DNA of 64,000 nucleotides from Raillietiella orientalis (GCA_036172245.1 JAYWIR010000026.1:992001-1056000); one strand, 5' to 3'. Counted from the first letter of the stretch, positions 3,095-41,768 are shown. Translations and numbers: made by a program. Notes: generated by a model not told the origin, from the sequence alone.

Positions 3095-3508
3095 ATTACA
3101 AAGTGTCGTATGACATGCGCTTGTTATAAGAGGGGATCACGTTTTGCCCTCTACCACCGAGTGCCAGTGTGGAGGAAGTGGAGGTACCCTTCTGAGCAAG
3201 CGGACAGCGAGGCAGCGGAGTGGAAACGTGACAGCAGCAGTTGTCTGCCGATACGGAGATGATAGCATCAGCGTCAGCAACAACCTCTCCAGGCAGCCTA
3301 GGCGGAAGAGACGGCATCGTTCTCAAGGACGTCGTAAGCAGCGGTAACAGTTTTTCACCCGCTCACGCAGAGTCCTTTCTTTACAAGAAATAAAGGAAGA
3401 TGAGAGCGCAGTTCCCGAAACAGAATCAAGAAAGGGTGCGGGGTAGGGGGGAAGCGGTTCTTCGGGAGGATCCACCGACACGCAGGAGCAGATGCAGCAA
3501 CCGCCTAG
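3095..3508 (+). pseudogene. Possible degenerate ORF1-like remnant at the array edge
   Basis: GC-rich, Cys/Gly-rich start followed by basic and acidic low-complexity peptide with in-frame stops; no diagnostic motif. Confidence 0.25.
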
Positions 3509-5635
3509 GCGCACGGACGTGCTCTCTGAGCGCTGCTGAGTGAGTTAGAAACTTTAAGTGTTGTGTGGTGGAAGCGGAGATCCTCTGGCAGCGATGCCTG
3601 AGGACACCGCGATGGAGTGCCAGGGGAGAGAACCCTCTTTCCCCCAGCAAATAGAGGTCAGAGCGTCCGCCTCGACCCAATCGTCCATCGCCCCAGGGAA
3701 GGTCTGGAAGGCCGTGGCTGCGGCCCTGTGGTGGGCAGCCATGGCTGAACACAAGGTCTACCTAGAGGTGGACTACAATCCAGTCCTCCTCTACAAGGTA
3801 GGCAATTTATATAATTCTGAGAGCGCGCGCACCTTCTCGAAGGCGATTCACGCTCAGGGTATCATGCAAGAGGAGCTTCTTGCAATGACCATTCGCAGCG
3901 GTGGTCAATACGTAAAGGCAAGCTTGGCGCAGCGACTTCTGCAGACCCCCGTTGCAATGGGAAACAGTAGGCTTCTCCCCATTACGATGGACCACTCGGT
4001 GGTGGTCTATCTTCTCGGAATAACGAGGCGGACGGCCAAAGAGGCTGTCCACACCGAATTATCCAAATACAGAACGGTTCACGCGCTGTGGCAGAAACCT
4101 TCTCCCTTCGTGGAGCACAGCGGACCCTCAGGAGGCCTAGCTGAGTCCGTCCCGATAACCGTCCACGAGGGCATAGGGTTGCCGCACGAATTACATGCCA
4201 CCGGGGAACCGGTCGACGTGTGGTACGTTGGGAAACCCAAGTACCGCAGACACTTCCACACTGAGGGACATCCAAAAAAAAAAAGTTCCCCCTAAATCAA
4301 GTGTGAGGTGCGCGCAGCAATGGGACACACACCGAAAGTGTGCCCCCAAACCCTCGCCCGCGTCGCGGCTGCGAAAGGCAGGAAGAAGCGCGAGGCGAGA
4401 AAAGCCAAACTCGCCGCGAAAAACGCGGAAAAAAGCATCGCAGAGAACGTTTCCCCAGCAACACCAGATGGGGCTACCTCAGACATCCCAGCGGAGCAAG
4501 CTGAAAACGTCGAGGAGGACGGCCAGGAGCCCGGATGGAAGCTGGCAAGAAACAAGAAAAAGCAAAAGAAGGAGAAAAAAGAAACAGGTCAAGCACAACT
4601 CTGCGAAGATAAGCCGAGGAGCGACACAATTAAAAACTGCCGTGTCATCCTTGAACGCGTCCCTGCGAACGAGGAAGCTCTGCCGCCGCCAGAGTGAAAC
4701 CTCGCGAGCAAAAGGAAGAGGGGAGCGAGGCGGTGGCGTCCGTCGCCGTTGTCGACGACGCAGATTACGCACGGGCGGCTGAGGAACTCGAAGTCACCCT
4801 GCGGGAAAATCAGAAGGCGACGAAGAAGGCCCTCCGGCGTCCCACATCCGCTAAACAATCCGAACCTTCGGATTAGGAAACGGAAGTGGGAAAGTCGTCT
4901 TTCATCCTGGCACCCTCGCGCAAGTCTGGGCGCAAGTCTAAGACCCTGAGAAGGCACATCTTCTCTGCCGACATGGAAGAGATGGCCTCCGACAGCGAGA
5001 GCGTAATGGGCTTCAGAACACGGGAATCCTCGCCAGAGAATATCCCACGTTGCGACGCCCAGGAAGGGATGGACGCGTTGGAGACGGTCCCAGAGCCAGA
5101 AGCGACCGTCCCTTCTGATAGTTTCCCGTCCACTGAAGTGGCAAGAGCCGCATTAGCGCTTTCCCAGCTTTGATGCTGAAAATTGCTCATGGCCTGTTGG
5201 GACATCAACGGGCTGCGCGACACGGCAGGGGACGAAACCCTGTGATCCTTCGATCTCGTACTCCCGCGAGAGATCCACGTGATCTCTGCAGAGCAGGCAC
5301 GGGAAATCGAGCGGGTAGCAGGTGGCCAGCTGTCGTGCCAATGCGGCTCTCGCCTGTCTATCGAAGTCGCCTTCCTCCTTCAGCCAGACATCGCGAGGGT
5401 TGCAAAGGGCGTGCTTCGACCAGGAAGGTCCTGTCGGCCAACTGACTCTCAGATGGTCTGACTCGATTGACCTCGTGGTCACCAATGTGTACGCCCCAAG
5501 CGGCTCAAGCAGAGCACGGGAACAAAGGACGTTCTTCGAAATCCTGAAACGCGATTGGCTAATGGTAGGAGGCGCGCAATAGGCGCATCTGATTGGCGGC
5601 GACTTCAATCTCCACTTCCATCCTCTGCTTGCTGA
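3509..5635 (+). mobile_element. Copy F (lineage 2): 5' end, frameshifted ORF1 and endonuclease up to GDFN
   Basis: GCACGGACGTG at 3511; MPEDTAM..YKVGNLY..WYVGKP; AAEELEV; TGATG at 5171; NVYAP; GGDFN at ~5595-5609. Confidence 0.85.
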
Positions 5636-7099: not shown

Positions 7100-9031
7100 T
7101 CATGGTGGGTTTCCTGCTGTTTGGTCCCGGGAGTCGTCTTCTATCCTCTTCAGGATGAATCGGTACGTCCAGGCTTGGATTTTCCCACAGTTTCTAATGC
7201 CGATTTCCCTCTTCAGGAGCCCTTGTAGGGTCTCCATCGGTGGTGCGGCTCTTCTGGCTTTCCTCATTTTCCACCACCGCACAAGTATGGCGGTGATGAA
7301 GAGGGCGATGGTCGTCCTCACCATGGGATTGTAACAGGGAACATTACCATCCCCTTGAAACATCCCGGCGAGGATCTCGTGGTCGATGGAGTCAAAAGCC
7401 TTCTCCATGTCAGTGAACAAAAGCACCAGGTTCTCGCCGACGTATCCACTGAGTCCAACAGTGGCCTGGGCACACTTGACATTCTCCGACATGTGTCGTC
7501 CTGGGACTGCACATGTCTGGACCGGAGAGATCAGCCTCGACATGACCTTGCCTAAGCGGTTGGACCAGATCTTCGCCAACCACTTGGCATCGGAGCTTAG
7601 GATCGAGATTGGCCTCCATTGGGCGATCTGGGTAGAGTCGCCTCCTTTCGGCAGCAATCTCATCCGACTCTCGTAGAAGGACTAAGGTAGTCTGCCTTCT
7701 TCCTGGATGCAGAGGGTCAACTGGTGGAACAAGCGCAGGTAGGCGTGCAGGTACCGCTGATAGTGCGTGATGGGTACACTGTCAGGGCCCGCTGCCACGT
7801 CCTTGCGAAGTTGCCCAAACGCAGTCTTCAACTCTTCTTCGGAGAACTCCTCCTCCAGTCTGTTCCGCTCAAGGTCGTCGGTCCTCTTCTCGAGATAGCT
7901 CAAGAAGGCCTGTTGACTAGAGCGACACAGATGTTGTCGCCTGAAGTGTTTCATGTGATGCCTGTGAAAGGCATCCACGATGTCCTCAGACGACTGTCGC
8001 TTTTGGCCGTCGTACTGGATGCAGAAGATATCTGTTGCCAGATTTCTCTTCTCTAGCACGCCGACTTCCCCTTTTATGTTATTGAGGACGTACCGACTCT
8101 CGTACTGATCGAAGTACTTTGAGAGGGAGCGATCTTGGATGTTCAGCTCCCGGTACGCCTCTTGCCTCAAGCGCCTATCCCCGAACTGCATGTTCGCAAA
8201 CAGGTGTATCCTGTGTTTCAGGCTGTCCCAGTCGGCGACTCTTCGGATTGTTGTTGCCCTCAGAATCGCCTCCAGGACAGCCTGATGTCCAGGATGTGTC
8301 TCGAACCAGTCGGGCATGCTGATGAGCGCCGCCCTGGTGCCTTGCCTCCGCCGAGGATTCTCCGTTCTTAGGGAAAACCGCACCAGGGGGTGATCGGACA
8401 CCGTAGTCATAGTGTCGCGAAACCCCTGGATGCGGTTCCCAAGTTCGGTGCTGTGCAGGACGTGATCGATTGGCTTGTGGCTTGCTGTTCGCCAGACCAG
8501 TCCGAACTCCTCGGATAGCCGTCGATACGCCGTCCTTCCTCTGGCGTCTTCCGAATGAATGATCTCATCCAAAATGTTGAGATCGCCAGCAACAATCACG
8601 ACGTCCTTGGGGGCGACCTTTTGCCGGAGTGTTGCATGCAGCGCCTCCGCACAACGATGTTTTAGCCTGTGCGGCCCGTACACGTTCACCAGGATAAGGT
8701 GAACAGTTGCGGACCAGGCTAGTCGCACGCCGATGATTCGTCCGGGTTGTGGACAGAACACTTCCAGAATAGTGGGGGCTAAGTGGTTCTTTATTAGCAC
8801 CGCCACACCCTTCGTGTTCCGTTCTCCTTCGCTGACGAACATCTGCCCGTTGAATCGCCGTTCCATTCGCTGGCTGATCTCGAGACCCATCCTGTGGGTC
8901 TCCTGCAGGCACACGATGTCTTGTTGTGCGATGGTCCGCACAATCCTTCTTCTTTTTCCCTGGTCGACCACACCGTTTACGTTCCAGGAGGCGATGTTCA
9001 GCCTCCTGGCAGTCGATAGGGAAGAGGTCAT
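7100..9031 (-). pseudogene. ORF2 of copy X (APE + partial RT, internal stop at 7682, deleted)
   Basis: APE motifs, AAGPDS, WRPISILSSDAK, DMEKAFD; YADD region missing. Confidence 0.85.
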
Positions 9032-9632
9032 AAAAGGGGAAGACCTATTTCTTGGCCTTCCTGAGCTTCTTCTGTCTGGGAGAGCGTGCTCTTCCAGACG
9101 TCGAAGAAGCAGCGGGCTTCTCGCTGCCGGCGTCACTCTCCGTACCTGTGAGGTCGGTAATTTCCGCCTCCTCCGTAGAGTGTTCCGCCTGCGCGATCAA
9201 TTTTCGAGATAGCGCCTCTATCTCGACCTTGGCGCAGAAGTTCGCCTTCACGTCGGGAAGCTGTTCCTCTAACTTCTCGCGTTCAGCGACCTCCACCACC
9301 TGGTTGATGTTCTCTTGTGCAGTGCAGATCTTCTGCAAGATTTTCTCTTGCTGAGGACCGCTCTGCACCTCCATGATCTCCTCCGCCAGTGTTGCCAACT
9401 CCTCCGTGGTCTGCAGAGCCTCCTGCGACACTTTAGTGGCTTCCTGTCTCTCTTCCTTCGCGCCTTCCTGCGCTGCCTCCATCTTCTCGCCTTCCTGCTC
9501 TGCTGCTTCCAGGATTTGAGGAGTTCCTTGCTCCTTGACGAGCATCCTCCTCTTTTTCTTCTTTCCCACTTCTATGAAGCCGTCCGCCGACACCGGGACG
9601 GCTTCTTTCACCTTCTTCGGCCTTCCTGCCTT

Positions 9633-10916
9633 CTAAGGCTGTTCGGCCTCCTTGATGTTTCTCTCTCTCACGGGAGAGAGACCGCGAATCCTTCTGCAGT
9701 TTTCAAACTCCGGACAGCTCCATTTCGCATGTCCGTGTTTCTTGCAGAAGGAGCACACCTCCGGCTGCGGGCAGTTTCGAACTTGATATCCTACTTTGCC
9801 GCAGCGAAAGCGGCGGCAAGTTGGGCAAGCGCCGGCCCTGTGGCCGAAGTGCTTGCACCCGGTGCAGAATACCGGTTGTTGCCGGTAACGCACATTCACT
9901 CCCTGGGATTGTTCGTCAATAACGGCCAATCCAGGGATCACCGCTCCCTCCCTCAACTTCATCTTGGCGATCATGTCGCCAGAAAATTTGTTTCCAGAGA
10001 AGTTCTGGAAATCGAGGTCCAGAACTTCCCCAAACTGCTCCAAGTAATTCCACACCGCTAGTTGCGGTGTGAGGATGGAGATGCCGTTTAGAAAGACGGT
10101 TGTGTATGGCATCTCGCCAATACCACAAACCATCCGTCCTTGTATATTGATCCCCTTCTGGATCAATCGCTCTCTAATGTTTTCACAGTCTGTAAAGACT
10201 GTTAACCCGTTGTTCGATGGAATGATCGCCTGAATGCGATCAAAGTCTATGTCCGTCTTGTCGAGGGACAAATAGACCTCCCTGATTTTATTAAATTTTA
10301 TTAGCCCGGTCTTGAAGATAATGGGCTTCACGTTGGGGCCTATTTCGACTATTGGTCGGTCCACTTTTAGAACTTTTCCGCTAAGCGGCTTACCAAATTT
10401 CCTAGGTGGGTGGACACTCGCCTGTCCAGCCGCCACCGACGCATAAGAAAAGGGCTGCGACGCCGCAGCCGAACCAGATGGCGTCGCTCCCTGCACCGCG
10501 TGAACGCCCGCGGGTCCCGCCTGGGACGCCGCCGCCGCGGGCGCAAACCTCGACGTCACCGCCGCGGGCGGCACCCTCGGCATCGCCGCCGCAGGAGCGA
10601 CCTTCCCCGCCGCGAGCACGACCTCCGCCGTCGTCGCCGCGGGCACGACCCTTGGCATCGCCGCCGCCGGCGCAGCAAAGCCCGCCGCGGGCGCGATCCT
10701 CGGCATGCCTCTCGCAACCTCGCCGTTGCCGCACGTTACCTCCATGGCTTCCATGGGGGACGATGGCCTCACCACTCCTCCAACTCCAGATGCCTGCATC
10801 CTGGCAGCTGTTCCGGCTGCTCGGGACGACTGCAGGATTTCCACCGTGGAATTCTCGGCGCTGCTGCTGCTGATGATGATGGTCCCGGGTTGCACTCTTT
10901 CCACACTGGCGTTCAC
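9633..10916 (-). CDS. ORF1 of copy X (three CCHC knuckles, Ala/Pro repeats)
   Basis: CTGCKHFGHRAGAC, CGKVGYQVRNC, CSFCKKHGHAKWSC. Confidence 0.85.
   Translation of the reverse strand: MNASVERVQPGTIIISSSSAENSTVEILQSSRAAGTAARMQASGVGGVVRPSSPMEAMEVTCGNGEVARGMPRIAPAAGFAAPAAAMPRVVPAATTAEVVLAAGKVAPAAAMPRVPPAAVTSRFAPAAAASQAGPAGVHAVQGATPSGSAAASQPFSYASVAAGQASVHPPRKFGKPLSGKVLKVDRPIVEIGPNVKPIIFKTGLIKFNKIREVYLSLDKTDIDFDRIQAIIPSNNGLTVFTDCENIRERLIQKGINIQGRMVCGIGEMPYTTVFLNGISILTPQLAVWNYLEQFGEVLDLDFQNFSGNKFSGDMIAKMKLREGAVIPGLAVIDEQSQGVNVRYRQQPVFCTGCKHFGHRAGACPTCRRFRCGKVGYQVRNCPQPEVCSFCKKHGHAKWSCPEFENCRRIRGLSPVRERNIKEAEQP
10525..10715 (-). repeat. Degenerate GC-rich coding repeats in X ORF1 (MPRxxPAA units)
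   Basis: MPRIAPAA, MPRVVPAA, MPRVPPAA, SRFAPAAA. Confidence 0.6.
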
Positions 10917-13900
10917 TCAAACACTTGCCCTCTCAGGGCACTCAAAAATTGCCTTGGCAGTGGTTTTAAACACTGCCTTGGCGGGGTATTGGGTATAGTT
11001 TTAAACTAGCAATAATCACGCCTCCCTTTCGTTCAGCGGCGGCGATACCGCCCGTGCGCAAGGCTCTCGCGATCGCTAAAGGAGTTGCTTAAGCCTGCGT
11101 GGAGGCAGCACTTCAAGAGGCAGCCAAGGCAACGCCTCTTACATCCGTGGGAGCAGCGCCATCTCAGGATGGCAAAGATAACTGCGACGCGAAGGAAGAC
11201 GGCTGGATGCAGGCGAGAAAGATCATTCGAAAGAAACCATCAAGGTCTTCGCAGCTCTGTGTGAAGGTGAGTGGGCGAAAGAAACCCGCGAAACCTTCCC
11301 AGAAAAAGATTGCGATTCTTTCCTCCTGCGCAATCGTCCTCTCGCGGCTGGAGCGGGAAGCTGCTGCTGCGGCTAAGAGGACGAAAGTCCCAGGCGCAGT
11401 TGCAGAAAGCGCTAGGAAACAGGCAGCGAACGATCTCCCTAATTCCGGGAAACAGCAGCAGTGCCTGGCAAGCGCTCGACTGTCGGATTCCGATCCAGAG
11501 TCCGACAGAAAGAGCACACAGCGCGACAACCGCCCGAAACCGCGCAATCGCCTCCCGAAGATCCGCAAGCGCGTGGTTGCCGAGGAGAAACTGTTGTTGG
11601 AGAGCAAAGAGGAGGAAAAGGACCTCACCTCTGAGCTATCGGCAACAAGCAGTGCGGCTTCGAATGGAGATGTCCAGTCTCCGAGATCGACCGCTCTGTC
11701 TCGTGACGACTCGCCGGACAAGGCGAGAAATCTGTTCTCACCTTCCCAGCCTTAATGCAGGAAATCGTCTCTTTCCGTCGATACAGCGTAGCCTGTTGGA
11801 ACGTCAATGGGCTGCGCAGGGACGGAAAGAGGCGCGACGTGTCAGACACCCTGCGACATTTCGATTTGGCGATCCTTCAGGAGATGCATTACATCTCCGA
11901 TGAGGAGGTTGCCGAAATCGAACAGCGCGCGGGTGGCACCCTGTACTGGCGAGAAGGTTTTGCACAATCGTGCGGAGTCGGGTTTCTCGTTAATAGTAGG
12001 ATGGCGGGAGCAGTGCGCAGCGTTCGATTCGACAAGGAAGGCAGAAGAGGCCAACTTGTACTCAAGTGATCAGATTCAATCGACCTCGTCGTAACGAACG
12101 TCTACGCGCCGAGCGGCTTTCATCGGCGTGTCGAAAGAATCGAGTTCTTCGACGTGCTGAAGAGCCAATGGCTCAGAAACTCCGGAGCCAGAGTGGCGCA
12201 TCTCGTCGCAGGGAACTTCAACGTCCACCTGCTTTCCAACGAGACCCGATCCCTGGCGGAACGGTCGCGGGTGGAAGAAGCATGCGCGTTGGTGCACGCG
12301 TGTAACTTGGAAGCCGGCGAGCCTGGACTGGAAAGGAACGTGGATCACCTCTACCTCGATGAACACCTACTCTCGCGAGTGGGAAGGAGAGGCAGGGTGC
12401 CGTCCACGTTATCGGACCATGATAGGCTGGAGTTCGAGCTACTCCCGCCTGGCAAGGGACCTCCAAACAACGTTTAAATTATGCCGGCGGATTGGCTGAG
12501 TCACCCGGAAGCGGCGAAGCATCTTCGCCAGTTCCTTTGCGGCTCTGCCATCCGGGAACTCGCAGACTGGGACCATCTTAAAAGATCGGTTCGCGAGTTT
12601 TGCGACCGGTTCCCCCTGCAACTGCTACCACGCGGCTTCGGGGAAGGCGTGGCCAATAGCAGAGCATTTCTGCAGGCGTGCACCTTCTCGAGACGTGCGG
12701 AAGTCCGGCAACTCGCAGAGTACAAGGCGAGGGCCGAGCGCCAGGTCTGGCAGTCTGGAGCGGCTATTCTGCTCGACGACCAAGGCCGGGAATGCACGGC
12801 TCCTGCCGAAGTGCGGCGAGCACTAAAGCGTCACTTCTCCTCGCTCTACGCTAATTCCCCGACGGAAAGAGTCCTCTCCGAACTACTTTTGCCGCGGGCT
12901 GCACATGGCATCGGCGAGGAGGAACGCGATCGTCTCGACGAGCCCTTCACGTTGGAGGAAGTTTCTTCCGCCATCGCAGGACTCAAGAGACGGGAGACGC
13001 CAGGTGAGGACGGACTGCCCGCGGAGTTCTATCAGAGCTTCGCGGCGGAACTCGCCCCACTGGTTCCTAGAATCTCGACGCTGATGAGGGTGACGGGCGA
13101 TGTCCCTTCTTCCTTCCGCTCAGAAAGGGTGCGTCTCCTTCCGAAAGGAGGGGATCTGCGCCAACTCAACAAATGGCGTCCGATCACATTAGTGAATAAG
13201 GACGTCAAGTTGTTTTCGAAGCTGTGGGTCACGCGCTTAGGGAAAGTCGCGGAGTCCCTGGTAAGCCCGGAGCAGTCTTACGCTGTACCGGGTAGATCAA
13301 TGGATGCGAACCTTCTTTTCGCGCGCACCTGGTGGCAGCTCCAAGAGCGCGTTGCAGCGGATAGCCGAACAGCGGCAAGACCTTCTGCCGACTGCGTGCG
13401 CCAGTGCGAACGGACGGAAGAAAGGCCGGGAGCCTTGACACCAGCAGTAGATTTGCACAAAGCATTCGATTTTCACCCGGATTTCGCCGGGGCGTTTATT
13501 ATAAAACAAACATCTACAAAGACGTGCAGTGGCTGGACCATTGCTCCAGCCACGCACGAAGAAACACAGAGCCTGCCGGGTCACCGGTTTGCAGACCGGT
13601 ACGGTCCACCACGGCAGCAGGGGGAAGGGGGAAAAACAAAAAACAAAACAAAAAAGAAGAGAAAAGTTGGGAGGGTAAGGGAAGGGATCACAGTTGCTGG
13701 TGGGGCCGTTGCATCCTTTGCAGGATGCCGGCAAGCTCCTTCTGTATTTCTGAATCCAGGTGGGGCCATCGGGACGCCCTCCTCTGGAACTGGAAGGCTG
13801 GCTGGATGGCACCCTGGTCGCGTTGTCCTCTCTAGGCCTTGCCCCAAGCGGTGACGATCCCGCGTAGGCAGCACAAAGCTGCTAACGAGGCCGCTGGCCG

Positions 13901-15120
13901 AAGGGCGTCGGCAACGAAGAAGACTTTCAGTGCGTCCCTGGGGTTGCGGCAGGGGATTCCGATGGCCGCGGCAAAGCGAAACCAAAGGGGCCGAAGGGCA
14001 ACACAATTGACTAGCAGGTGGGGGAGGGACTCCCGTTCCCCACACCTGACGCAATTGGGGTCCACCGCTCCCCAGGTCCAGTGGTGTCGGCGGGCGTTGC
14101 AGTGAAGTCCCCAGTGCTGCAACAGGAGAGCCGACTCCTGCCATTTTAAGGGGAGGGCGGAAGTGTTCATGAGCACCGGGGGCCACTTCAGATGTTCAAT
14201 GGGAACATCGAGCAGCGCGCCCCAACGCAGAAGTCCATTGGGAGGCGTACTCGGGGTCGCAGCGTCTGTTAACTGGCCCGTCTTCCACTCTCCTATCTTC
14301 TTCTCCTTTCCGGAGATTGTTACTGTAACCACCCACTTCGCCGCAACATCGCTGTCCAGATCTTCCATCAGGGAGGGCAGCGCAGCAGCGAGGGCGGTTC
14401 TTCCTGCCCACGCTCTCTTCTTTGGATCCTCCAGGATCTCGCGAAGCGTGCAACTTCTGTAACCCCCAAACAGGAACCTTCGTTCCTGTTGGGAGCGTTG
14501 CATGCCGAACTGTCCCCACGTTCGAACGGTTTCCTGTAACCAGGCACTACCGTTAAACGGGCGACAGGTGAGCAATCCTGGGTTTTTCCGATACAGCGCA
14601 GCCACCCTCCTTAGCTGGAGTCCGCATCGGTTGACGCGGCGACGGAGTGCAAGAAACGACGTCAGTCCCGTCTTGCCGGTGGCTTGCTGGAGAAGGATAC
14701 GTGCAGGGACGCACCAACAGGTGCACCACAACTCTGGAACGAGTGCCGACAATCGGAACTGGAGCTGAAGCTCCAGCCACTCCAGCATCAGGAGGCCCAG
14801 ACCACCATCCCGACGAGGAGCGCACAAGTCCTTTAAGCGGACTCGGGCCCTCCCGTTGCCCCAAAGGGCGATACGGAGGAGGTCCTTTGTCCGCTTTTTA
14901 ATTCTCTCTGTAAGGGGGCAAACGAAAAGCAGGGGGCGGAGGAGAGGAGCCGCGAACGTGTTCCAAACCGCGGCCCGTTAAGGCAGGAAAAACCTGCCGC
15001 CTCGGAACGGGCCGATCGCCGTCTCTACTTTTTATAGGCAGCCGGACCACGCTTCCGCAGGGGAGTAGTCCCCCAACGGCACATCAAGGTACTTGAAGTA
15101 CCTCACCGTGAGCATCCCCA

Positions 15121-18100
15121 AAGATCGGTCCGCGAGTTCTGCTGCCGGTTTCCTTTGCACCAGCTTCCGCGCGGCTTCGGAGAGGGCGTAGCCAACAGCA
15201 GAGATTTTCTGCAGGCCCGCTCCTTTTCCAGGCGCGTGGACGTTGGTCGATTATCCGAGTACAAGGCCAAGGCCGAGCGCCAGGTCTGGCAGTCAGGGGA
15301 GACAGTTCTGCTCGACGACCAGGACCGGGAATGCTCGGCTCCAGCCGACGTGCGACGGATAGTCAGGCGCTATTACTCTTCTCTGTATGCAGAGGCACCG
15401 ACGGAACGCAGCCTCTCCCGGCTGCTTCTGCCGATTGATGCACCTGTTGTAGACGAGGAGAAACGCGCGCGTCTTGATGAGCCCTCCACGGCAGAGGAAA
15501 TTTCCTCGGCCATCTCGGGGCTCAAGAGACGAAAAGCGCCAGGCGAAGATGGGCTCCCCGCGGAATTTTTTCAGTGTTTTGCGGCGGAGCTCATCCCCCT
15601 GGTGCTCCAACTCTCGTCGCTGATGCGAGACTCGGGCGATGTCCCCGCCTTGTTTCGCTCAGCAAAGGTGCGTCTACTGCCGAAAGGCGGAGATTTGCGC
15701 CAACTGAACAACTGGCGTCGGATCACATTAGTGAATTCGGACGTCAAGTTGTTCTCGAAACTTTGGGTGGCGCGGATGGGTAGGATCGCGGAATCCTTGG
15801 TAAGTCCGCAGCAGACGTACGCTGTTCCTGGGCGGTCCATGGACGCGAATCTCTTGTTCATCCGCACATGGCTGCAATTGCAGCATCGTTTGGCGGTGGA
15901 TCGTCGTGCGGAAGCGACGCCTTCGATCTCTCACCGACGGAGGCGCGGGACGCAAAGGGAGACACCGAGAGCCTTGGCGGCTGCAGTCGATCTGCACAAA
16001 GCTTTCGATTGCGTGAACCAAAAGCTTCTTCTTGAGCTTTTGGAACGTCTGGGTCTTCCGGCATCCCTGTTGGCGTACTTGCGCTCCTACTGGCGCCACG
16101 CGATTACATCCATTGTTTTCAGTGGCTGTCGCGTGTACGGCGTGCCGGTACGACGAGGAATTAGGCAGGGTGACAGCTTAAGCCCACTGCTCTTCAGCTT
16201 CTATTTTGAATTGGTGCTGGAGGCTTACAGGCTGACGCTAGCCAACCTACCGAGCTCCTGTCCAGGTATGCCGGCCGTGGCAGCCTATGCCGACGACCTG
16301 CTTCTCCTGTTGCCAAGGGCCACCCCGGCGACATCGCTTGAAGACTTCTTTGAGTTGATTCGTCGCGGTGCGGGCGTGAGCGTTAACAGGAGTAAGTGTA
16401 TGGTTGTTCCGGTGGGTGCGACGTGGGAGGGGCAGTCCGACTGGATCGACCTGCGGATCCCCACGGGCAGGTACCTCAGGTACCTCGGCGTGCCGTTGGG
16501 CGACTTCTGCATCTCAGAAGCTTGGTCGGACTGCCTTCGGAAGGCAGAGCGTGCACTTGGCCCGTTTTCAGGAGGCGAGTTCGTCTTGCCGGAACGGGCC
16601 TGCATCTGGAACAACTTCGTTGCTTCCCTCCTCCGCCCCCTGTTTTTTTTTCCACCCCCCCAGGAAGTCAAAGTCTGGGCGCAGCGCCTTCTACGCAAAG
16701 CGTTGTGGGGCGCTGCAAGATCCCGTGTTGGACTTAAAGACTTGATGGCGCCGCGTCAGGATGCAGGCTTGGGCATCCTCGACTTAAACAGCATCGAACT
16801 GCAGGTGCAGTTTCGCATGCTGCGGCTCTGTGCCAAGCTGTGGTGTACGCCGTGGTGCTTACCCGCACGCCTCATACTGAGGCGCTGCACGGGAAGCGAG
16901 GGACTGCTTTCGTTGCTACCCCACTTTCGGCACACCAGAATAGGGTTTGGCTTCCCGCTGAGGCAGCTGTCCTCACTGCTGGAAGCCCAAAGCTGGATCT
17001 CCTGCCGCCCCATGAACATTAATGCATGGCGGCAGGAATTTCTTTCATCGTGGGCAGCTTCCAAAGGAACGCGCCTGGAAGATCTTCGACGCCTGCGACT
17101 TCTCCTCAGTCATCAAATGGACGAAGTCATGCAGGACAAGAAGTTGTCGGATCGTCTGGCCGCCACACCACTCGCCGCAGCGCTGCCTGCCCTCAGGGCA
17201 AGCAACGACGGTTGCCTACCGGCGGAATGGGAGTTCTCCTGTAAAATAGCGGGATTCAGTAAGCTCCTCGGCAGCTGGACGACAAAGGAGCTGGTGCAAG
17301 CCGTCACTCCTCGGAATCGGGCGAAGGGCCTGCTTCGGTGGAGCGAACATTTAAGTGTGCCCCCCGAAGTAATAGTGGTTCCCCGCGTTTGTTTGGACAG
17401 CTCCGTGTTCCCCCTTAAGTGGAAACAAGATGTGCTGCTCTTTTTACATTGTGCATTACACTGTAATAGGCAGCGAAGCATCGTTTCCGAAGGAGCTGCT
17501 TTGCCAAACTGTTTAAGGTGTGGAGAGATCGAGTTTTTTCCGCACCTTTTGCTGGACTGCGGTGACCTCCGGGAACTGTGGCGAAGGCTCACTTCGGCCA
17601 TCATGTCACAAAGAGGCACTGCCATTGATGTGCTGCGGCGCTTCTTCAGCAGAAATGGACTTTCGGTTGGTGCGATTGTCGCAACCATGTGTTGCGTTCG
17701 CGCCATCGTGAAGGCCCGCTACGCCCTGGAGTTGTCAGCGCAGCGAAGGGAGGCTCACCTGCTTGCAGCTCAATTCATGGAGAAGGCTTCAAGCTGGTCT
17801 CGTCTTCGTGACAAGGTGAATGAGGACATCACCGGCATACATCGCCGGTTTACACACCTTTGAGAACGGCGTAATCCGGTGACCCCTGCGACCTCTCGCC
17901 CACCCATACCCCGTCCCCGTTCGCTCGGTAAAATTTCCGGTGCCCATGCTTTTATCCCCGTGTCTTCCAGAGCGATCCCAAAGACTCTTATCCCGTCCTC
18001 CTTATTCATTGTTTTCATTTTATTTTGGTTTCTTTGTGTTCCCCGCCCCCCCACACCGTTTGCAAAACTGTTACTCTGGCCTGCGTGCTAGCAATATTCT

Positions 18101-18216
18101 CAACATTCTTGTTCAGTCGTCGGTTGGGAGTTTGGTTCCCAACTGGTTTATTTTGTATAATTGCTTTTTTTGGTTATGTTATATGGAATAAACGCCCCTG
18201 CGTGACCGGGTGTGAA
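15121..18216 (+). mobile_element. Copy M (lineage 1): lacks the 5' half, has an intact RT-to-3'-end half
   Basis: 902-codon open frame, pyrimidine-rich 3' UTR, AATAAA plus hairpin at 18187-18212. Confidence 0.92.
15155..17863 (+). CDS. ORF2 fragment: non-LTR reverse transcriptase + C-terminal CCHC, no endonuclease
   Basis: KAPGEDG, DLHKAFD, RQGDSLSPLLF, YADD, RYLG, CLRCGEIEFFPHLLLDC; longest open frame in the window. Confidence 0.93.
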   Translation: MHQLPRGFGEGVANSRDFLQARSFSRRVDVGRLSEYKAKAERQVWQSGETVLLDDQDRECSAPADVRRIVRRYYSSLYAEAPTERSLSRLLLPIDAPVVDEEKRARLDEPSTAEEISSAISGLKRRKAPGEDGLPAEFFQCFAAELIPLVLQLSSLMRDSGDVPALFRSAKVRLLPKGGDLRQLNNWRRITLVNSDVKLFSKLWVARMGRIAESLVSPQQTYAVPGRSMDANLLFIRTWLQLQHRLAVDRRAEATPSISHRRRRGTQRETPRALAAAVDLHKAFDCVNQKLLLELLERLGLPASLLAYLRSYWRHAITSIVFSGCRVYGVPVRRGIRQGDSLSPLLFSFYFELVLEAYRLTLANLPSSCPGMPAVAAYADDLLLLLPRATPATSLEDFFELIRRGAGVSVNRSKCMVVPVGATWEGQSDWIDLRIPTGRYLRYLGVPLGDFCISEAWSDCLRKAERALGPFSGGEFVLPERACIWNNFVASLLRPLFFFPPPQEVKVWAQRLLRKALWGAARSRVGLKDLMAPRQDAGLGILDLNSIELQVQFRMLRLCAKLWCTPWCLPARLILRRCTGSEGLLSLLPHFRHTRIGFGFPLRQLSSLLEAQSWISCRPMNINAWRQEFLSSWAASKGTRLEDLRRLRLLLSHQMDEVMQDKKLSDRLAATPLAAALPALRASNDGCLPAEWEFSCKIAGFSKLLGSWTTKELVQAVTPRNRAKGLLRWSEHLSVPPEVIVVPRVCLDSSVFPLKWKQDVLLFLHCALHCNRQRSIVSEGAALPNCLRCGEIEFFPHLLLDCGDLRELWRRLTSAIMSQRGTAIDVLRRFFSRNGLSVGAIVATMCCVRAIVKARYALELSAQRREAHLLAAQFMEKASSWSRLRDKVNEDITGIHRRFTHL

Positions 18217-19036
18217 ATCTCTTGCGCTTGTTCTGCAGAGATCACGTGGATCTCCTGCAGCAGCGCAAGGTCGTAGGACTCCAGAAAGGCGGCCATGTCT
18301 CGTCTCCTGCCGGCGTCTGTCATGCCGTTCACGTTCCAAACGGCGATGCGCAGACGACGGCGGGAGGAGATTCCCGGCATTACTGCTGGGAAGATTAAGG
18401 TGTGGGGGAGCCCTCGTCTTGCGAGGCAGGCGGGATGTCCATGGGGGTTTCGGCCTTCTCAGGCACCTGAGGCACCTGTTCGGCCTCCAACCCCTCCATC
18501 CCCTCCGTGTCCGCGCGTGGGAGTCTCTCGGGCGACGGGTCCAGAGAGTTTCCCACGCTCATGGCACCCTCGCTTGCGGAAGCCATCTCTTCCCCTTCGA
18601 CGGGGGAGACGAGCTTCCTTGGCTTTGTGGACTTACGTACAGCCTTCTTGCGCGGTGCCGTGGAAACGGAGGCTGCGCTTCCGGCCTCCACCACGGGGTC
18701 GGAAGTGGGGGACTCCTGAGGGAAGGCACGACGCCTTACGGCCTTCTTGGCAGCCTTGGAGGGTTCTGGCTGCAACGAGGCTGCCAGCTCCTCCGCGGCT
18801 CACGCAAAGGCTACGTCATAGATGGTGGTGTCGATGACGGACGCCGCCGCCGGCTCGCTCCGCTCGCTGTTGACAGAGTCAACAGAGGAATTGTCGTCGG
18901 TAGCGGCAAGTTCTTTTTCGCAGCGGTCGGGAATACACTCGACGACGACGCCCGCACGGACGTGTACTGTGTTGCTCCTCGAGCGTGATTCCTTTCCGTC
19001 TTTTTGTGTGTGGTGTGCCCGAGTGCGTCCACTGGG

Positions 19037-20980
19037 ATGTCCACGGAGACCCTGCAGCAAAAGATGGATGTGGAGGCTGCTACTGGCAGTGGAGACTCTA
19101 CTCCAGATGTCCGGTCCGCCTCTGATTCTTGTGTCTCGCCACCGGCGAGAAGATTCGCCGCCGTCGTCAAGGCGGTGGCAGCCAACGGAGCACCGCCCGA
19201 CGAAGCAGAGCTGCAGGCATATGCAGCCCATTGCTACAAGCCTGCGCTCTGCTATCCGGTGAGTGCTTCTATCTCCGAAAGGGTCGGAGAAAATTTGTGG
19301 GACGAGCTTTTGCGCGTCGGGGTCCGACAGGACGACCTCCTGGCCGTCATGCCGGTTAACGCGCTCGGACACTGGGAGGTGCACTGCAAAGAGGCATCCC
19401 TAGTCCAGCACCTTGTCCGCACCCCGCTAAACATGCGCGGGAAGGAGGTCGTCCCGTCGGCCATCGACCAGTCGTTCGTGGTCCGATTTACCGCCGTCCA
19501 GGTGGACACGCCCGATCGCGTGCTCGTCGCTGCACTTAGTGCATTCGCCACGGTGCACGCAATGTGGAGAGCAGAAAATCCGATCAAAAGGATTCCATCT
19601 CTACACAGCGGACTTGCCATGGCGCGTCTCACCATGGCGGATAGGAGGCAAATGCCTCCGCACTTGCAGGTGGGCGATGCGATCGTCCACCTTAAATTTG
19701 CCGGTCAGCGACCGGCTTGCGGCATTTGCGGTGCCGAGGGCCATCGTCCGTGGACGTGCCCTTCACGCAACTGCCGCTATTGTGAACAGCTCGGCCACTC
19801 CGTCAAAGAGTGCGCCGAGCTGAAGAGAAAGAGGCAGGCAAAAAGCCGCCAACAATCGACCCCGTCTGCGCCAAAAAGATCCCCCGTTGTGCCACTGGAG
19901 AAATCGGGCGCGAAGGGCGGGGCATCTTCGAGTGGAGGTCTCGCGAAAAAGGACGCGGTTGCTTCAGGGAAGCCACCATCCCAGACAACCGCGCAGACGG
20001 GAAAGACGCCACGTCGCCCTGGGGGCAAATCGCACCCTTCGAAGCAGCCTAAGAGTGCGGGCACGCACTCAATCAAGGCAGCTGAACCGTCCGCGTCCGC
20101 TCGCGCGTATAGCGGAGCACACGGGAAACCGTGCGCGGGTACCCCCGGAGCTGCCTCTAAACGGCAGTCTCCTCCTACGGCGGTGGAGATCACGTCTTCC
20201 ACGCCGAAGGCACGAGCAGCGAAGGCCGCAATACCACCTCGCGGGACGACGGCAATGACCGCCGTTTCGCCCGCATCGGCTAAGGAGCAGGTGCAGTGCG
20301 TAACGGGGACGGAGCCGTCTCCCGCCGCGAGCGCGAAACGTGAGCCGGCATCTCCGGCCAAACAATTGAGGGAGGCGTCGGCCTCCCAGGAGGGCGTCCC
20401 CTACGCGGGCTGGACTCGAGTCTCCAGGACGCCCACAAAGGGGAAGAATAAGGTTGACCCTTCAATATTCCCCATCCTTAAGGTGGGTGGGAGGCAAAAG
20501 AGAAGCACGATGAAGAAGGTGCGTACCCAGGTACGCACTACGGCTGCGTGCTCTGTCTCCGTCGCTTCGCGCGAGAGGGCAGCTGCGGAAGCCAAAGCTC
20601 CGGAAGCTGCGTTGGCGACTGCGACGACCCCCGCGCGGGCAGGGCAAGCCTCCACCTGCCGAAACAAAAAGAGACTGGCAAAACGCCAGTCTCGCGCCAG
20701 GCACTCGGACTCCGAGGTGGAGTCCGAGTGCAAACAAATGGAGCGCGCATCCCGGGGTAAGCCGGTAGCGCGCCGGGCTAAAGTGCGAAAGCACGAGCCT
20801 GTTGCCGGAGGCGGTTCCGGCTCCTGCACCGAGACCGAGGCGATGATCCTCGGCTCCCAGGACTCATCTGGGCGCGATGTGGCGGCGAACGGGAGCGATT
20901 CCGCTTCCCAATCCGCTCTCCTACCAGCTGACTTCTTGCCGGACGGGGCGAGGAGCACGCCGTCATGTCCGCAGCAGTGA
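19037..20980 (+). CDS. Intact ORF1 of family A
   Basis: MSTETLQQ start; CGICGAEGHRPWTC and CRYCEQLGHSVKEC knuckles; long basic Ala/Ser/Pro tail. Confidence 0.9.
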   Translation: MSTETLQQKMDVEAATGSGDSTPDVRSASDSCVSPPARRFAAVVKAVAANGAPPDEAELQAYAAHCYKPALCYPVSASISERVGENLWDELLRVGVRQDDLLAVMPVNALGHWEVHCKEASLVQHLVRTPLNMRGKEVVPSAIDQSFVVRFTAVQVDTPDRVLVAALSAFATVHAMWRAENPIKRIPSLHSGLAMARLTMADRRQMPPHLQVGDAIVHLKFAGQRPACGICGAEGHRPWTCPSRNCRYCEQLGHSVKECAELKRKRQAKSRQQSTPSAPKRSPVVPLEKSGAKGGASSSGGLAKKDAVASGKPPSQTTAQTGKTPRRPGGKSHPSKQPKSAGTHSIKAAEPSASARAYSGAHGKPCAGTPGAASKRQSPPTAVEITSSTPKARAAKAAIPPRGTTAMTAVSPASAKEQVQCVTGTEPSPAASAKREPASPAKQLREASASQEGVPYAGWTRVSRTPTKGKNKVDPSIFPILKVGGRQKRSTMKKVRTQVRTTAACSVSVASRERAAAEAKAPEAALATATTPARAGQASTCRNKKRLAKRQSRARHSDSEVESECKQMERASRGKPVARRAKVRKHEPVAGGGSGSCTETEAMILGSQDSSGRDVAANGSDSASQSALLPADFLPDGARSTPSCPQQ

Positions 20981-22037
20981 TGCGTGGACTCACGTCCGCT
21001 CGTCGCTTCAGCGTGACCTGTTGGAATGTCAACGGGCTACGTGATGCTGACAAAAGGCTGACGGTAGCCAACGCTTTGCGCGCGTTCGATCTGGTGCTGC
21101 TTCAGGAGATACATAGCATCTCCGTACGGCAGGCATCGGATCTGGAAGAGCGCGCGGGCGGGACGCTACTCTGGCGGCAAGGCTCCGCGCACACGTGCGG
21201 AGTCGCGTTTTTCGTCCGAGGCAGGGTGGCGGAGGCGGTGCGGAACGTTTGTTTCGACGAGGAAGGTCGTGTGGGCCAACTTGTCCTCAAGTGGTCCGAA
21301 TCGATCGACCTGGTCGTTACGAACATCTACGCGCCGAGGGGAGGCCGGCATTGCGCCCAGCGACTTGCATTCCTGGGTGGCCTGCGCAGCCGCTGGCTCG
21401 CTGACTCCGGCCCTAACGTGGTGCACCTCCTTGCAGGAGACTTCAACGTCCACCTGCTAACAGAGGAGAGATGCCGCTTGAGGGAGAAGCAACTGGTGAG
21501 CGAGGTATGCGCGTCCGTGTGCGTGCAAAACTTGCTTGCTGGTGAGTCCGGGATGGAGAGATCGCCGGACCATGCGTTCCTCGATGAACACCTGCTCTCA
21601 CGATTAGTTCGGAGAGGGCGTCTGCTGTCCGCGAATTCGGGTCATCCTAGACTGGAGTTCGAGCTCCTCCCGCCTGGCAAAGGGCCTCCGATGAATGTCT
21701 GGAGATTGCCCGACGACTGGCTTAGCAATTCGGAGGCGGCGGAGCATCTTCGCCAACACCTCCGGGGCTTCGCCATCGGTGAACTCGAGGACTGGGACGA
21801 TCTGAAAAGATCGGTCCGCGAGTTCTGCTGCTGGTTCCCCTTGCACCTGCTTCCCCGCGGGTTCGAGGAGGGTGTCGCGAACAGCAGATCGTATCTGCAG
21901 GCGCGTACCTTTTCACGATGCCCGGACGTCCGGCGTCTGGCGGAGTATAAGGCCAGGGCCGAGCGCCAGGTTTGGCAGTCTGGAGCGGCTTGTCTGCTCG
22001 ATGACGCTGGCCAGGAATGCTCGGCTGCAGCCGAAGT
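20980..22037 (+). CDS. ORF2 N-terminus of A1: APE endonuclease and linker (truncated)
   Basis: CWNVNG, LQEIH, CGVAF, NIYAP, AGDFN, PDH, SGH (SDH in A2/A3). Confidence 0.9.
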
Positions 22038-25027
22038 TTGCCACCCGGATATGCCGGGGCATTTATTATTCTAATTTTCTACAAGAATTAGATAATAAAG
22101 TCTTTCGAAAGTTAATTGTGGGAAACACTTGGTTTTCCCACCTTGGTTGACGTGTCTGTTGCCGGTGCATAGACCGGTTAGGTCCATTCCCGAGGCGCAT
22201 GGGAAGGGAAAACTAGAACAAAAACAAACAAAAAGAGAGATAACGGGGAGGGAAACAGTTGTATGGGGAGAGGGGGGGGGCAGGAAAGGGATCACTGGGC
22301 GCCTGGGTCGGTCCTCCGCATCCTGTTCAGGATGCAGTCAAGTTCTGTTTTAACTCTGAAAGGTAGACGCCACCTTGTCGCCGTCTCTAAAGAGATCGTC
22401 GTCCAGTGGATGGCGTCCCTGCATCTTGGGCCTCTTCTTCTGGCGTGCCACCTTTGCACAATGCCGCGCACGCAGCAGAGGACTGCTAGAGACGCAGCGG
22501 GGCGCAGGCCGTCACGCAGAAAGAGGCGACGGTAAATTTCCTTCGGGTCGCCTACTGGAAGATGGAGGATTGGGGCGATTCGACTCCAGAGTCCATCCAG
22601 GGCGACACACTCGAGGGTGAGATGCGGGAAGGTTTCTCTTTCTCCGCACTCGACACAGCGGGCATCCACATTTCCCAGTGTCCAGTGAGACAGGCGTGCT
22701 CTGCTTAACAGTCCCCAGTGCAGAAATAGCAACGCCGTCTCCTGCCACTTCAACGGAAGTGTGCCGCAATCCCAACACGCTGGGGGCCACTTCACCTCCT
22801 CCGGAGGTATTGCGAGCAGCTCTCCCCAGAGCGCAAGTCCGTGAGGCGGGACGCTCGGGGTGGCAGCGTCCGTGAGCTCCCGAGTCGTCCACGCCTTTAA
22901 AGGTTTTTTCCTGCCTCGGATGAGGCAGGACACTTCCCACGATGCCAGCTCGTTGCTGCTCCTACTGTTTTTCAGGGAGGAGATAACGGGGGCAAGGGGG
23001 CTGAAAGCAGCCCACAGAAACTTCCGGGGCGTGTTGATAATATCCTGCAGCGGCTGTCGAGCGTACGGTCCTCGTCGTAGGCAGTTGTATTCCGCCTCGC
23101 TCGTGCCCTTGATCTTAGCCCACGCGGAAGCTGACTCCTGAAGCCAGGCAGTGCAGTTCGCGGGGATGCAGGAGATCCAGGTATTCTCCCTCATCAGGGC
23201 GACCATCTGGCGCAAATCGGGACCACAGTTGGAGAGGCTGCGCTGGTAGGCCACAAGGATCGAGGACAATCCTTCGCAGCCGGTCGCTCTTCTGGCGAGG
23301 AGCCGTGCCGGATCGCACAATGGCGTCATCCACAAGCTAGCCGCAAGGGCTAACTTTCGAATTGTTGTTTGAAGCTGGATGCGCTCCAACGTAAGGAGGC
23401 CCAAGCCACCATCCCTGCGTGGAGCGCACAAGTCTTTCAATCGGACTCGCGACCTCGCTGTGCCCCAAAGGGCAGTCCTCAAGAGGGCTTTGGTCCGTCT
23501 CTGTATGATGGAAGGGGCGGGGCAAACAAAAAGTAAGGGGCGAAGGAGGGGGGCCGCGAACGCGTTCCACACCGCGGCCCGCTCCTGCAAGTAAAACTTG
23601 CTGTTCCGGAACGGGCCGATCGCCAACTCCACCTTTTGGAGACGGTCGGACCAGGATTCTGCAACGCAGAAGTTCCCCAACGGAACGCCAAGGTACTTGA
23701 AGCACCTGCCCGTGGGGATCCCCAAGCGGATCCAGTCCGGCCGTCCGGTCCACGCCGTATTGTTGAAAAGTTGTGGTGATGTTGGCACGATGGAAGATTT
23801 CTCTCTGTTCACCTCGAGGCCCGTCCCGCGGCGCAGCAACTCAAAGAAATCTTCGAGCGCCGACGCCGGGGTGGACCCGGGGAGCAGGAGCAGAAGGTCG
23901 TCGGCGTAGGCCGACACGGCAGGCGTGCCGAAACACGAGCTTGGCAGGGTTGCCAGAGTCTCCCTGTATGCCCTCAGCACCAGCTCGAAGTAGATGCTGA
24001 AGAGCATGGGGCTCAGACTGTCACCCTGCCTTATGCCACGCCGAACCGGCACGCCGTACACGTGCCGGCCGCTAAAAGAGATGTTTATTAGAGCGAAGAG
24101 CCAGCAGGAGCGCAGGTAAGCCCGGAAGACGGCCGGGAATCCCAAGCGTTCCAGGAGCTCCAGAAGCAGTTCCTGGTCGACGCAATCGAACGCTTTACGC
24201 AGATCGACTGCGACCGCAAGGGCACCGGGCGCGGCTCTTCCATAAAGGGCGTCCCCTCCCTGGTCAGAGGAGAATCCAGGATTCTCTTGACCTCCCTGGT
24301 CTTCGCTTTGTTGCAACTGCCACCATGTACTGGCGAGGAACAGGTTGGCCTCCATGCTTCGTCCGGGAACAGCGTATGTCTGCTCCGGACTCACCACGGA
24401 TTCCGCCACCCGTCCCAGTCGCTGAGCCCAAAGCTTGGCAAGCAACTTCGCATCCGCATTCACTACTGTGATGGGACGCCAGTTGCCTACGTTGCGATTG
24501 TCTCCTCCTTTCGGCAAAAGACGTACTCTAGCTGACCGGAACGATTTGGGGACGTCCCCTTGTTCTCGGATCAGCATGCATAGCCGATGCACCAGGAGGG
24601 CCAGCTACGCCACGAAGCCTTGGGAGAACTCCGCGGGCAGACCGTCTTCCCCTGGTGCTTTTCTCTTTCGGAGCTTTCCGATGGCGGAGACGATCTCCGC
24701 CATTGAGAAAGGCTCCGCGAGTTCATGTGCCTGCTCCTCCTGCAGCGCGGGGGCGCCTTACGGCAGCAAGCGCTGCGCCACGGCGTCCTCTGTTGTTCTA
24801 CGCGCGTACAAGGAGGAGTAATAGTTTCGCAGGATGCGGTTTATTCTCGCCGGAGCTGAGCATTCTTGGCCTAGGGCGTCCAGCAGGCTGGGCGACCCAG
24901 ATTGCCAGGTCTGTCGCTCAGCCCCAGCTTTATACTCCGCCAGGCGTCGAACGTCGGGAGTCCTAGAGTAAAGACGGGCGTGGTGGTATGCCCGGTCGTT
25001 CCTCAGCCCTCCGCCGAATCCCTTGGC
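22038..25027 (-). mobile_element. Copy G (lineage 2): linker, RT, CCHC and 3' end
   Basis: ORF 24592-22292 with DLRKAFD, YADD, CVECGERETFPHLTLEC; hairpin 22042-22067. Confidence 0.92.
22292..24592 (-). CDS. ORF2 fragment of G: reverse transcriptase + CCHC
   Basis: WRPI, DLRKAFD, QGDSLSPMLF, YADD, FKYLG, GGLG. Confidence 0.92.
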   Translation of the reverse strand: MHRLCMLIREQGDVPKSFRSARVRLLPKGGDNRNVGNWRPITVVNADAKLLAKLWAQRLGRVAESVVSPEQTYAVPGRSMEANLFLASTWWQLQQSEDQGGQENPGFSSDQGGDALYGRAAPGALAVAVDLRKAFDCVDQELLLELLERLGFPAVFRAYLRSCWLFALINISFSGRHVYGVPVRRGIRQGDSLSPMLFSIYFELVLRAYRETLATLPSSCFGTPAVSAYADDLLLLLPGSTPASALEDFFELLRRGTGLEVNREKSSIVPTSPQLFNNTAWTGRPDWIRLGIPTGRCFKYLGVPLGNFCVAESWSDRLQKVELAIGPFRNSKFYLQERAAVWNAFAAPLLRPLLFVCPAPSIIQRRTKALLRTALWGTARSRVRLKDLCAPRRDGGLGLLTLERIQLQTTIRKLALAASLWMTPLCDPARLLARRATGCEGLSSILVAYQRSLSNCGPDLRQMVALMRENTWISCIPANCTAWLQESASAWAKIKGTSEAEYNCLRRGPYARQPLQDIINTPRKFLWAAFSPLAPVISSLKNSRSSNELASWEVSCLIRGRKKPLKAWTTRELTDAATPSVPPHGLALWGELLAIPPEEVKWPPACWDCGTLPLKWQETALLFLHWGLLSRARLSHWTLGNVDARCVECGERETFPHLTLECVALDGLWSRIAPILHLPVGDPKEIYRRLFLRDGLRPAASLAVLCCVRGIVQRWHARRRGPRCRDAIHWTTISLETATRWRLPFRVKTELDCILNRMRRTDPGAQ

Positions 25028-25031
25028 GAGT

Positions 25032-25038
25032 GGACGTG
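25032..25038 (+). promoter_or_regulatory. DPE-like GGACGTG at the element 5' end, type example
   Basis: Same or variant 7-mer at 3515, 5641, 18958, 50385 (+) and 11023, 33222, 40309, 41741, 56270, 63982 (-); matches the RGWCGTG downstream promoter element known from Drosophila jockey-type LINEs. Confidence 0.65.
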
Positions 25039-25117
25039 TGTTTCCTTCGCTCCCGAGTGAGTCGACAGGAAGCGGTTTTTTCTATTGTTGTTTGGTGTGG
25101 AACATCGTTGGTGTCCG

Positions 25118-41752: not shown

Positions 41753-41768
41753 CGTAAAGCTTTCGATT

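Follow-up and report, generated by a model that had tools for sequence, protein, structure and literature searches.

The known targets of site-specific LINEs (long interspersed nuclear elements) are genes for rRNA and small RNAs, telomeric and simple repeats, and a single DNA transposon. R2 and R1, for instance, enter rRNA genes at one fixed nick site and in a fixed orientation, with a start that depends on the 3' untranslated region (UTR) and proceeds without a long poly(A), and their target is multicopy and tolerant of insertion. Tx1L sits in the DNA transposon Tx1D. One account of sequence-specific LINEs names 'transposons' among their targets (PMC4640811). Zepp and ZeppL, L1-like LINEs of Coccomyxa and Chlamydomonas, are described as lying almost only in nested clusters and are thought to target existing copies; these clusters are given as GC peaks, 61% vs. 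53% in Coccomyxa (PMC3446292, PMC8226300), and the arrays are described as mostly 3' ends left after 5' truncation (PMC8226300). The present work concerns a stretch of 64,000 nucleotides from Raillietiella orientalis (GCA_036172245.1, JAYWIR010000026.1:992001-1056000), called the window below, in which L1-like retrotransposons without long terminal repeats (non-LTR retrotransposons) lie nested without a break from 3125 to 64000, at about 60% G+C, and in which one family, E, probably inserts into the reverse transcriptase (RT) genes of other LINEs at the codons of a conserved motif.

Family E is an L1-like non-LTR retrotransposon of the apurinic/apyrimidinic endonuclease (APE) type. The reading favored here, with moderate confidence, is that it integrates by target-primed reverse transcription at the (H/R)-K-A-F-D codons of RT motif A in one of two LINE clades (clade II), antisense to the host gene; what the sequence contains is a 3' end that abuts the site, and every step beyond this is inferred. 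Such a habit would resemble that of R2 and R1 in its fixed nick site and orientation, its start without a long poly(A), and its multicopy target. R2, however, combines a restriction-like endonuclease with a host gene as the target, whereas E would combine an APE-type enzyme with a selfish element. The Tx1 and R1 group, likened here by habit and not by RT phylogeny, comprises APE-encoding LINEs with sequence-specific integration into multicopy targets; unlike Tx1L, E would insert antisense into sequence that codes for the RT motif of another LINE, and the targeting is apparently reciprocal between LINE lineages. The likeness to Zepp, again one of habit rather than RT phylogeny, lies in a LINE-only cluster built by insertion into existing copies. 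Nevertheless, the nest described here alternates in strand, contains many full-length copies (at least eight canonical 5' ends), and brings together several diverged families, each with a defined site in the coding sequence of another family. No LINE homing to RT-motif codons of other LINEs was found in a literature search, outside the scope of which lay Repbase reports.

Based on RT nucleotide identity, with matrices computed from MAFFT alignments, the elements of the nest fall into two clades: clade I, with E0/E2, x46, E1/E1', and x22/h, and clade II, with B, J, C, j/K/K', and N (Table 1). Both 3' ends of family E in the window, those of E0 and E2, lie at the motif, antisense and in one register, namely at the last codon of (H/R)K(A/T)F(D/K) in plus-strand RT genes. 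At the join of host B with E0, GATTTGCACAAAGCATTCGAT (13450-13470; codons GAT TTG CAC AAA GCA TTC GAT) is followed by TTTCACCCGG, and at the join of host J with E2, GATCTCCGCAAAACGTTCAAG (57168-57188; codons GAT CTC CGC AAA ACG TTC AAG) is followed by the same TTTCACCCGG. The two copies terminate alike, in ...AATAAA-N20-CCGGGTGAAA with only three A's, and TTTCACCCGGATTT is found without mismatch exactly twice in the window, at 13471 and 57189. A first-pass annotation of this DNA had quoted four motif strings, all of which were located where it had placed them (13450-13470, 57168-57188, 41753, and 63994-64000), and had claimed that the insertion destroys the host RT; the host gene is indeed split directly after motif A. 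Of the sequence that separates the C-terminal coding region from the last 115 nt, E2 is without 477 nt that E0 (13586-14062) and x46 have, the corresponding E2 position being 57303.

The flanks of these two junctions differ far more than the elements themselves. E0 and E2 are 88.7% identical in their last 115 nt (102/115), 89.2% identical in the body (945/1060), and 91% identical in the RT half, whereas hosts B and J agree at 57 of the 100 nt beside the junction and, in the full comparison, at 641 of 887 nt (72.3%). The step from 57% to 89% falls exactly at the junction (Fisher test of flank vs. element, p = 1e-22). Maximum-likelihood analysis places J as sister to the intact K/j lineage, with support of 92/93, and a B+J clade is rejected by the approximately unbiased (AU) test (p-AU 0.02). 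Because identity steps at the junction, and because B and J are 72% identical and not sisters, E0 and E2 are best read as two independent insertions at one site, which agrees with what the first-pass annotation had concluded from the unlike flanks. Moreover, a copy split at KAFD cannot be the ancestor of an active lineage, so that one inherited junction is unlikely, unless gene conversion later overwrote the flanks. With uniform sites, the expectation for two of nine 3' junctions to fall on one base and strand of a ~6-kb element is about 0.003, and the observed coincidence exceeds chance.

The window holds 13 HKAFD sites (11 true motif sites among 15 pattern matches, together with J and the 5' flank of E2), four of which adjoin E-lineage ends, while nine are intact. 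These nine empty sites give the pre-insertion sequence GAY YTN CAY AAR GCN TTY GAY/TGY, the slash marking, here and below, the point of insertion. At both occupied 3' junctions, the host RT frame runs open into the antisense of the E 3' region, for about 128 codons in B (12478-13854, plus strand) and about 70 codons in J (56727-57398, plus strand), and the read-through peptide (KAFD-FHPDF...) is alike in the two copies. A representative-protein search with the antisense-E peptide (13471-13851), for read-through open reading frames (ORFs) across further junctions, returned one low-complexity match only. A contig search with the E0 C-terminal protein gave 91 pattern matches, none of them confirmed, and a metagenome scan with the E 3'-end pattern gave two loci, both unrelated chance matches.

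The 5' ends provide a second set of observations. Both E-lineage 5' ends (2/2), those of E1b and E2, are followed by 11 nt and then by motif codons, CGTAAAGCTTTCGAT TGC... in the case of E1b and CACAAGG in the case of E2. Beyond E1b, CGTAAAGCTTTCGATT begins at 41753, 11 nt past the element 5' end at 41741, and is followed by the upstream region of a plus-strand RT copy, h, whose own HKAFD lies at 41831-41845. At a fixed register, seven bases would match C-[A/G]-N-A-A-[A/G]-G by chance about once in 1000. Taken with a 3' nick after GAY, the 5' register equals a 15-bp duplication of the H-K-A-F-D codons, and a target duplication of this extent would fit the two 5' ends. The first-pass annotation had placed the 5' ends at KAFD as well: the strings do stand at the 11-nt spacing for both elements, but the pieces are short, and the E2 flanks mismatch at three of seven bases. 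Its assignment of E0, E1, and E2 to one family holds for E0 and E2 (~89%) but not for E1, the body of which (34692-40309) belongs to another family with an LPAGFG site, only 40310-41741 being E-like.

Under the mechanism proposed, the E endonuclease, or another DNA-binding part of the E protein, would nick the host coding strand between GAY and TGY. The 3'-OH would then serve as the primer for cDNA copied straight from the 3' box, no long poly(A) being involved, and the other strand would be cut 15 nt upstream, so that the HKAFD codons would be duplicated at the 5' junction, with 11 extra bases before them. Base pairing of the E 3' end with the target was considered and rejected, as at most one T:A pair can form; this, together with the presence of only three A's, suggests that specificity is carried by protein. 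Twin priming, template-switch chimeras, and 3'/5' transduction were also rejected for the host/E 3' joins, because they yield chimeras on one strand, or else flanks that match each other as well as the element copies do; the observed flanks have 57-72% identity. A 3'-terminal hairpin of E was dropped as a structure, having five pairs, -1.6 kcal/mol, and no compensatory change.

Table 1. Elements, hosts, and flanks discussed in the text (window coordinates).
Feature	Coordinates	Strand	Description
E0	13471-15122	-	5'-truncated family-E copy: RT C-terminal half and 3' UTR; 3' terminus ...CCGGGTGAAA abuts B
E2	57189-63982	-	Full-length family-E copy; 3' terminus abuts J; canonical 5' end GGACGTGT at 63982
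Z	18213-18957	-	Family-E piece (APE start, ORF1 end); 93% identical to E2
E1b	40310-41741	-	5'-terminal 1.4 kb of an E-like element, sharing ~78% identity with the 5' region of E2; 5' end GGTCATGT at 41741
Host B	11713-13470	+	Clade-II L1-like ORF2, APE to RT; ends at D codon of DLHKAFD (13450-13470); tblastn map, Pfam RVT_1 start
Host J	56282-57188	+	Clade-II RT fragment; ends at K codon of DLRKTFK (57168-57188); register as in B
E2 5' flank (Y)	63983-64000	+	11 non-host bases (63983-63993), then CACAAGG (63994-64000), H-K-A...
E1b 5' flank (X)	41742-41789	+	11 non-host bases (41742-41752), then CGTAAAGCTTTCGAT TGCCTGGAT (RKAFDCLD)
N	60036-61764	-	Clade-II LINE, 5'-truncated, nested on the same strand in the APE region of E2; AACGTTGAAAT on both sides
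E1	34692-40309	-	Complete copy from another family, with a canonical 5' end of its own at 40309; meets LPAGFG of Z' at the 3' end
E1'	25032-29831	+	E1 relative, 76-90% identical; 5' end abuts LAKGFG codons of minus-strand x22 (22038-25031)
K	18958-22037	+	Clade II, full-length 5' end; antisense in ORF1 of Z after ...GACGACGCCCGCAC
K'	29829-33222	-	K family (93.8% identical); same ORF1 site in other host Z'; flanks 74.6% identical
j	50385-54999	+	K family (95.5% identical); 5' end after ...TTCGACGACAACGGTGCAC of minus-strand x46
x46	46120-50384	-	E-related, 68-71% identical; 3' end abuts ...GEL/ (before QDW) of plus-strand host45 (43946-46119)
x55	~55000-56270	-	Probably the 5' part of x46; 5' end abuts J ~5 nt upstream of the NL/QDW site

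At least three families besides E return to a site of their own in other LINEs, nearly always antisense, and the view of KAFD as a special target, held in the first-pass annotation, was therefore not borne out. The further idea that the site is chosen because the host cannot mutate the motif is not supported by the non-catalytic sites of these other families (LPxGFG, the NL/QDW linker, and ORF1). E1, whose RT half is 61-65% identical to those of E0 and E2, has its 3' end against CTA CCT GCG GGA TTT GGG (LPAGFG) of an E-like plus-strand copy, Z' (33223-34691). The E1 3' end and the E1' 5' end both stand at L-P/A-x-G-F-G codons (34673-34691 and 25013-25031), in different hosts, and a duplication of ~18 bp covering the six LPxGFG codons would fit. 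The 5' flank of E1 (E1b ORF1, same strand) is incompatible with its 3' flank. At this junction, a 746-codon open frame (38745-40985, minus strand) extends from ORF1 of E1b, through the 5' end of E1, to E1 ORF1; spanning both elements, it gives the appearance of an internal ORF1 duplication and is probably fortuitous.

In the K family, the joins of K (18958), K' (33222, minus strand), and j (50385) all follow ...ACG..GCAC, antisense, in the ORF1 of three diverged E-like hosts. Identity among the three elements is 92-96% across the 5'-most 600 nt and 65-75% across the flanks. Z shares 93% identity with E2, in which the K site is uninterrupted, and Z' is 74% identical; given this divergence and the absence of K from E2, the K insertions in Z and Z' are separate events. 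The 3' end of j (...CCGGGTAATAAA), at ~54990-55000, abuts minus-strand x55. The last family, that of x46, uses a clade-II linker: the x46 3' end (junction within 46100-46124) and the x55 5' end (junction within 56271-56300) flank one NL/QDW site, and host45 and J can be read as a single element that is split at this point, the overlap being 4-5 nt. Element j is nested in turn, with x46 on one side and x55 on the other.

That each family has a single short site, within another LINE and nearly always antisense, implies a nest that grows by LINEs homing into LINEs rather than into the remainder of the genome. In its general form, the proposal is more tentative than that for E alone: at least four diverged L1-like lineages may home into one another, E at HKAFD, E1 at LPxGFG, x46 at NL/QDW, and K at its ORF1 site, antisense and mostly reciprocally between two clades, forming a GC-rich, LINE-only island in an AT-rich genome; the site of E would lie beside the catalytic aspartate of RT.

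Several observations weigh against the integration of E at KAFD codons. The whole case consists of two 3' junctions and two short 5' flanks within this window, and the occupied sites (2/4 in clade II, 0/6 in clade I) are too few to show a choice of host lineage. E2 is the only copy with both flanks, seven bases being visible on the Y side, and these flanks are not an exact duplication: CGCAAAA in J vs. CACAAGG in Y, i.e., three differences in seven (p ~0.03 at 10% divergence). This mismatch points to recombination of E2 with another E copy, to flanks (or Y) from a different host, or to motif pieces carried from donor sites. X extends over ~24-35 nt before another RT copy (h) begins and may be a donor-derived flank rather than the local target, and Y shows 7 nt before the window ends; the two pieces could be target duplications, donor-carried flanks, or, for Y, chance. 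The 11 bases between 5' end and motif are not host-like and differ between copies, with 3/11 shared by eye. Furthermore, the nine nick sites share loose purine-rich endings (TTCGAT, TTCAAG, CCGAAG, TTGAAA, AAGAGA, TTGCGA, and others), and N, which belongs to a different family and lies in sense orientation, is found at AACGTTGAAA/T, which resembles the AACGTTCAAG/T of J.

The last two points are what would be seen if the motif itself were not recognized and the E endonuclease merely had a loose preference (e.g., ...TTC[G/A]A[N]/T in a GC-rich LINE), with KAFD among few usable nick sites in a window of ~60% GC. A moderate endonuclease preference could indeed contribute, given the purine-rich endings and the likeness of the N and J sites. 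Such a hot spot is nevertheless an unlikely explanation, as recurrence tracks family membership in four families, each with its own site, the orientation is fixed in 4/4 E junctions, and the 5' junctions hold the same 15+11-nt register.

It is less probable still, indeed improbable, that E inserted once, in an ancestral host, that the host+E composite was then duplicated segmentally, and that gene conversion from clade-II copies overwrote the host parts up to the junction. The region does contain large inverted duplications (18226-22037 vs. 33957-30145, 91%; 25032-29831 vs. 40309-35536, 84%), many paralogous donors lie close by, and the two-sided flanks of E2 and of E1 are not clean duplications. 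However, conversion tracts of at least 900 nt would have had to stop exactly at the terminus, repeatedly, in E, K, E1, and x46. The E bodies are without comparable mosaicism (89% throughout), and K in Z (93% identical to E2, which has no K there) and in Z' (74%) cannot be one inherited event.

Mis-assembled joins or an accidental coincidence of two sites are very unlikely: although the region is a dense repeat nest, and although, among the 6 of 99 loose ends listed when contigs of a public run (with 8% of words; related copies matched) were placed on 56900-64000, none was at 57189 or beyond 64000, a collapse would not yield different host sequences with identical register at two junctions, a same-base, same-strand coincidence has a probability of ~1e-4 per pair under uniform sites, and the independent-run contigs bridge the empty N site within E-like copies (60035/60036 joined to 61765), so that the family exists as assembled.

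Independent antisense insertion of E at the motif codons thus remains the favored reading, and the architecture of the nest can be described around it. N, which interrupts E2, carries a clean 11-bp duplication (AACGTTGAAAT), and E2 aligns by tblastn, in two parts, to the Exo_endo_phos domain described below, at 53% (62259-61765 and 60052-58835). The motif A of E2 has itself decayed to DSQTAFD. Z may be the upstream part of E0's element, split by C (15120-18216) with ~2 kb lost; if E0 and Z are one element, the C insertion removed these ~2 kb. At 15120-15122, the truncated 5' ends of E0 and C face each other head to head, with a 3-nt overlap (AAA).

Using tblastn with three in-window proteins, ORF1, APE, and RT pieces were mapped on both strands, mostly alternating. 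Nine 3' termini were found in the window, and all nine 3' junctions lie inside other LINE copies, seven of them antisense to the host; the two sense cases (N and h) are both 5'-truncated. The nine termini share a 3' box: AATAAA, a stretch of ~13-14 nt that includes a short GC stem, CCGGGTG, and then 3-5 residues, most of them A. The canonical full-length 5' end, GGACGTGT, is seen in eight clear cases, in addition to x55 with GGACGGG. Most insertions cross from one clade to the other: E, x46, x22, and h (clade I) stand in clade II, and K, K', j, C, and N (clade II) stand in clade I, with E1 and E1' as insertions of I into I.

Pfam searches place Exo_endo_phos in 36793-38523(-) (E = 4e-13) and in 7682-9196(-) (E = 3e-17), and RVT_1 in C, x22, E1', and j (E = 1e-18 to 9e-25). 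The zf-RVT matches are weak, the C-terminal ORF of E0 scoring 20.3 bits and x22 scoring 25.4 bits against a cut-off of 27.5, as are those of zf-CCHC, at 20.3-22.2 bits around a cut-off of 20.8. In a protein search, the nearest database proteins are at most 28% identical, except for one metagenomic RT at 58%; the search with the RT of element C returned this one 58% relative, intact through KAFD, together with 11 distant matches. A far more divergent L1-like copy lies at 7346-10322 (minus strand), with ~29% protein identity to the others and its DMEKAFD site intact.

About 3 kb of DNA with 35-42% G+C adjoins the nest. At the edge, a GC-rich stretch (3125-3345) is followed by a 165-nt minus-strand 3'-end fragment (3346-3510; TTTTTCACCCG...) and then by the 5' end of a plus-strand element at 3511, with GCAC again before the 5' end. 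In the AT-rich flank, 505-1735 (minus strand) holds several open frames of 79-148 codons that resemble exons of one gene; these gave no database homologues and no Pfam family. At 29829-29831, two elements meet tail to tail, both cut on their 3' sides, which looks like a rearrangement breakpoint rather than an insertion.

If true, a LINE that targets the conserved RT-coding sequence of other LINEs would represent a new target class. It would also offer a testable mechanism for LINE-only nests, such as the Zepp-type clusters that mark centromeres in some algae, for which the account has hitherto been only that the element 'targets existing copies'. The naturally diverged APE-type enzymes, with their different short sites, would be material for studies of endonuclease specificity. 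Antisense nesting creates convergent transcription units, which may feed silencing pathways. Should the reciprocal pattern hold as well, retrotransposon-on-retrotransposon homing would be a mechanism of cluster formation, possibly of a centromere-like kind.

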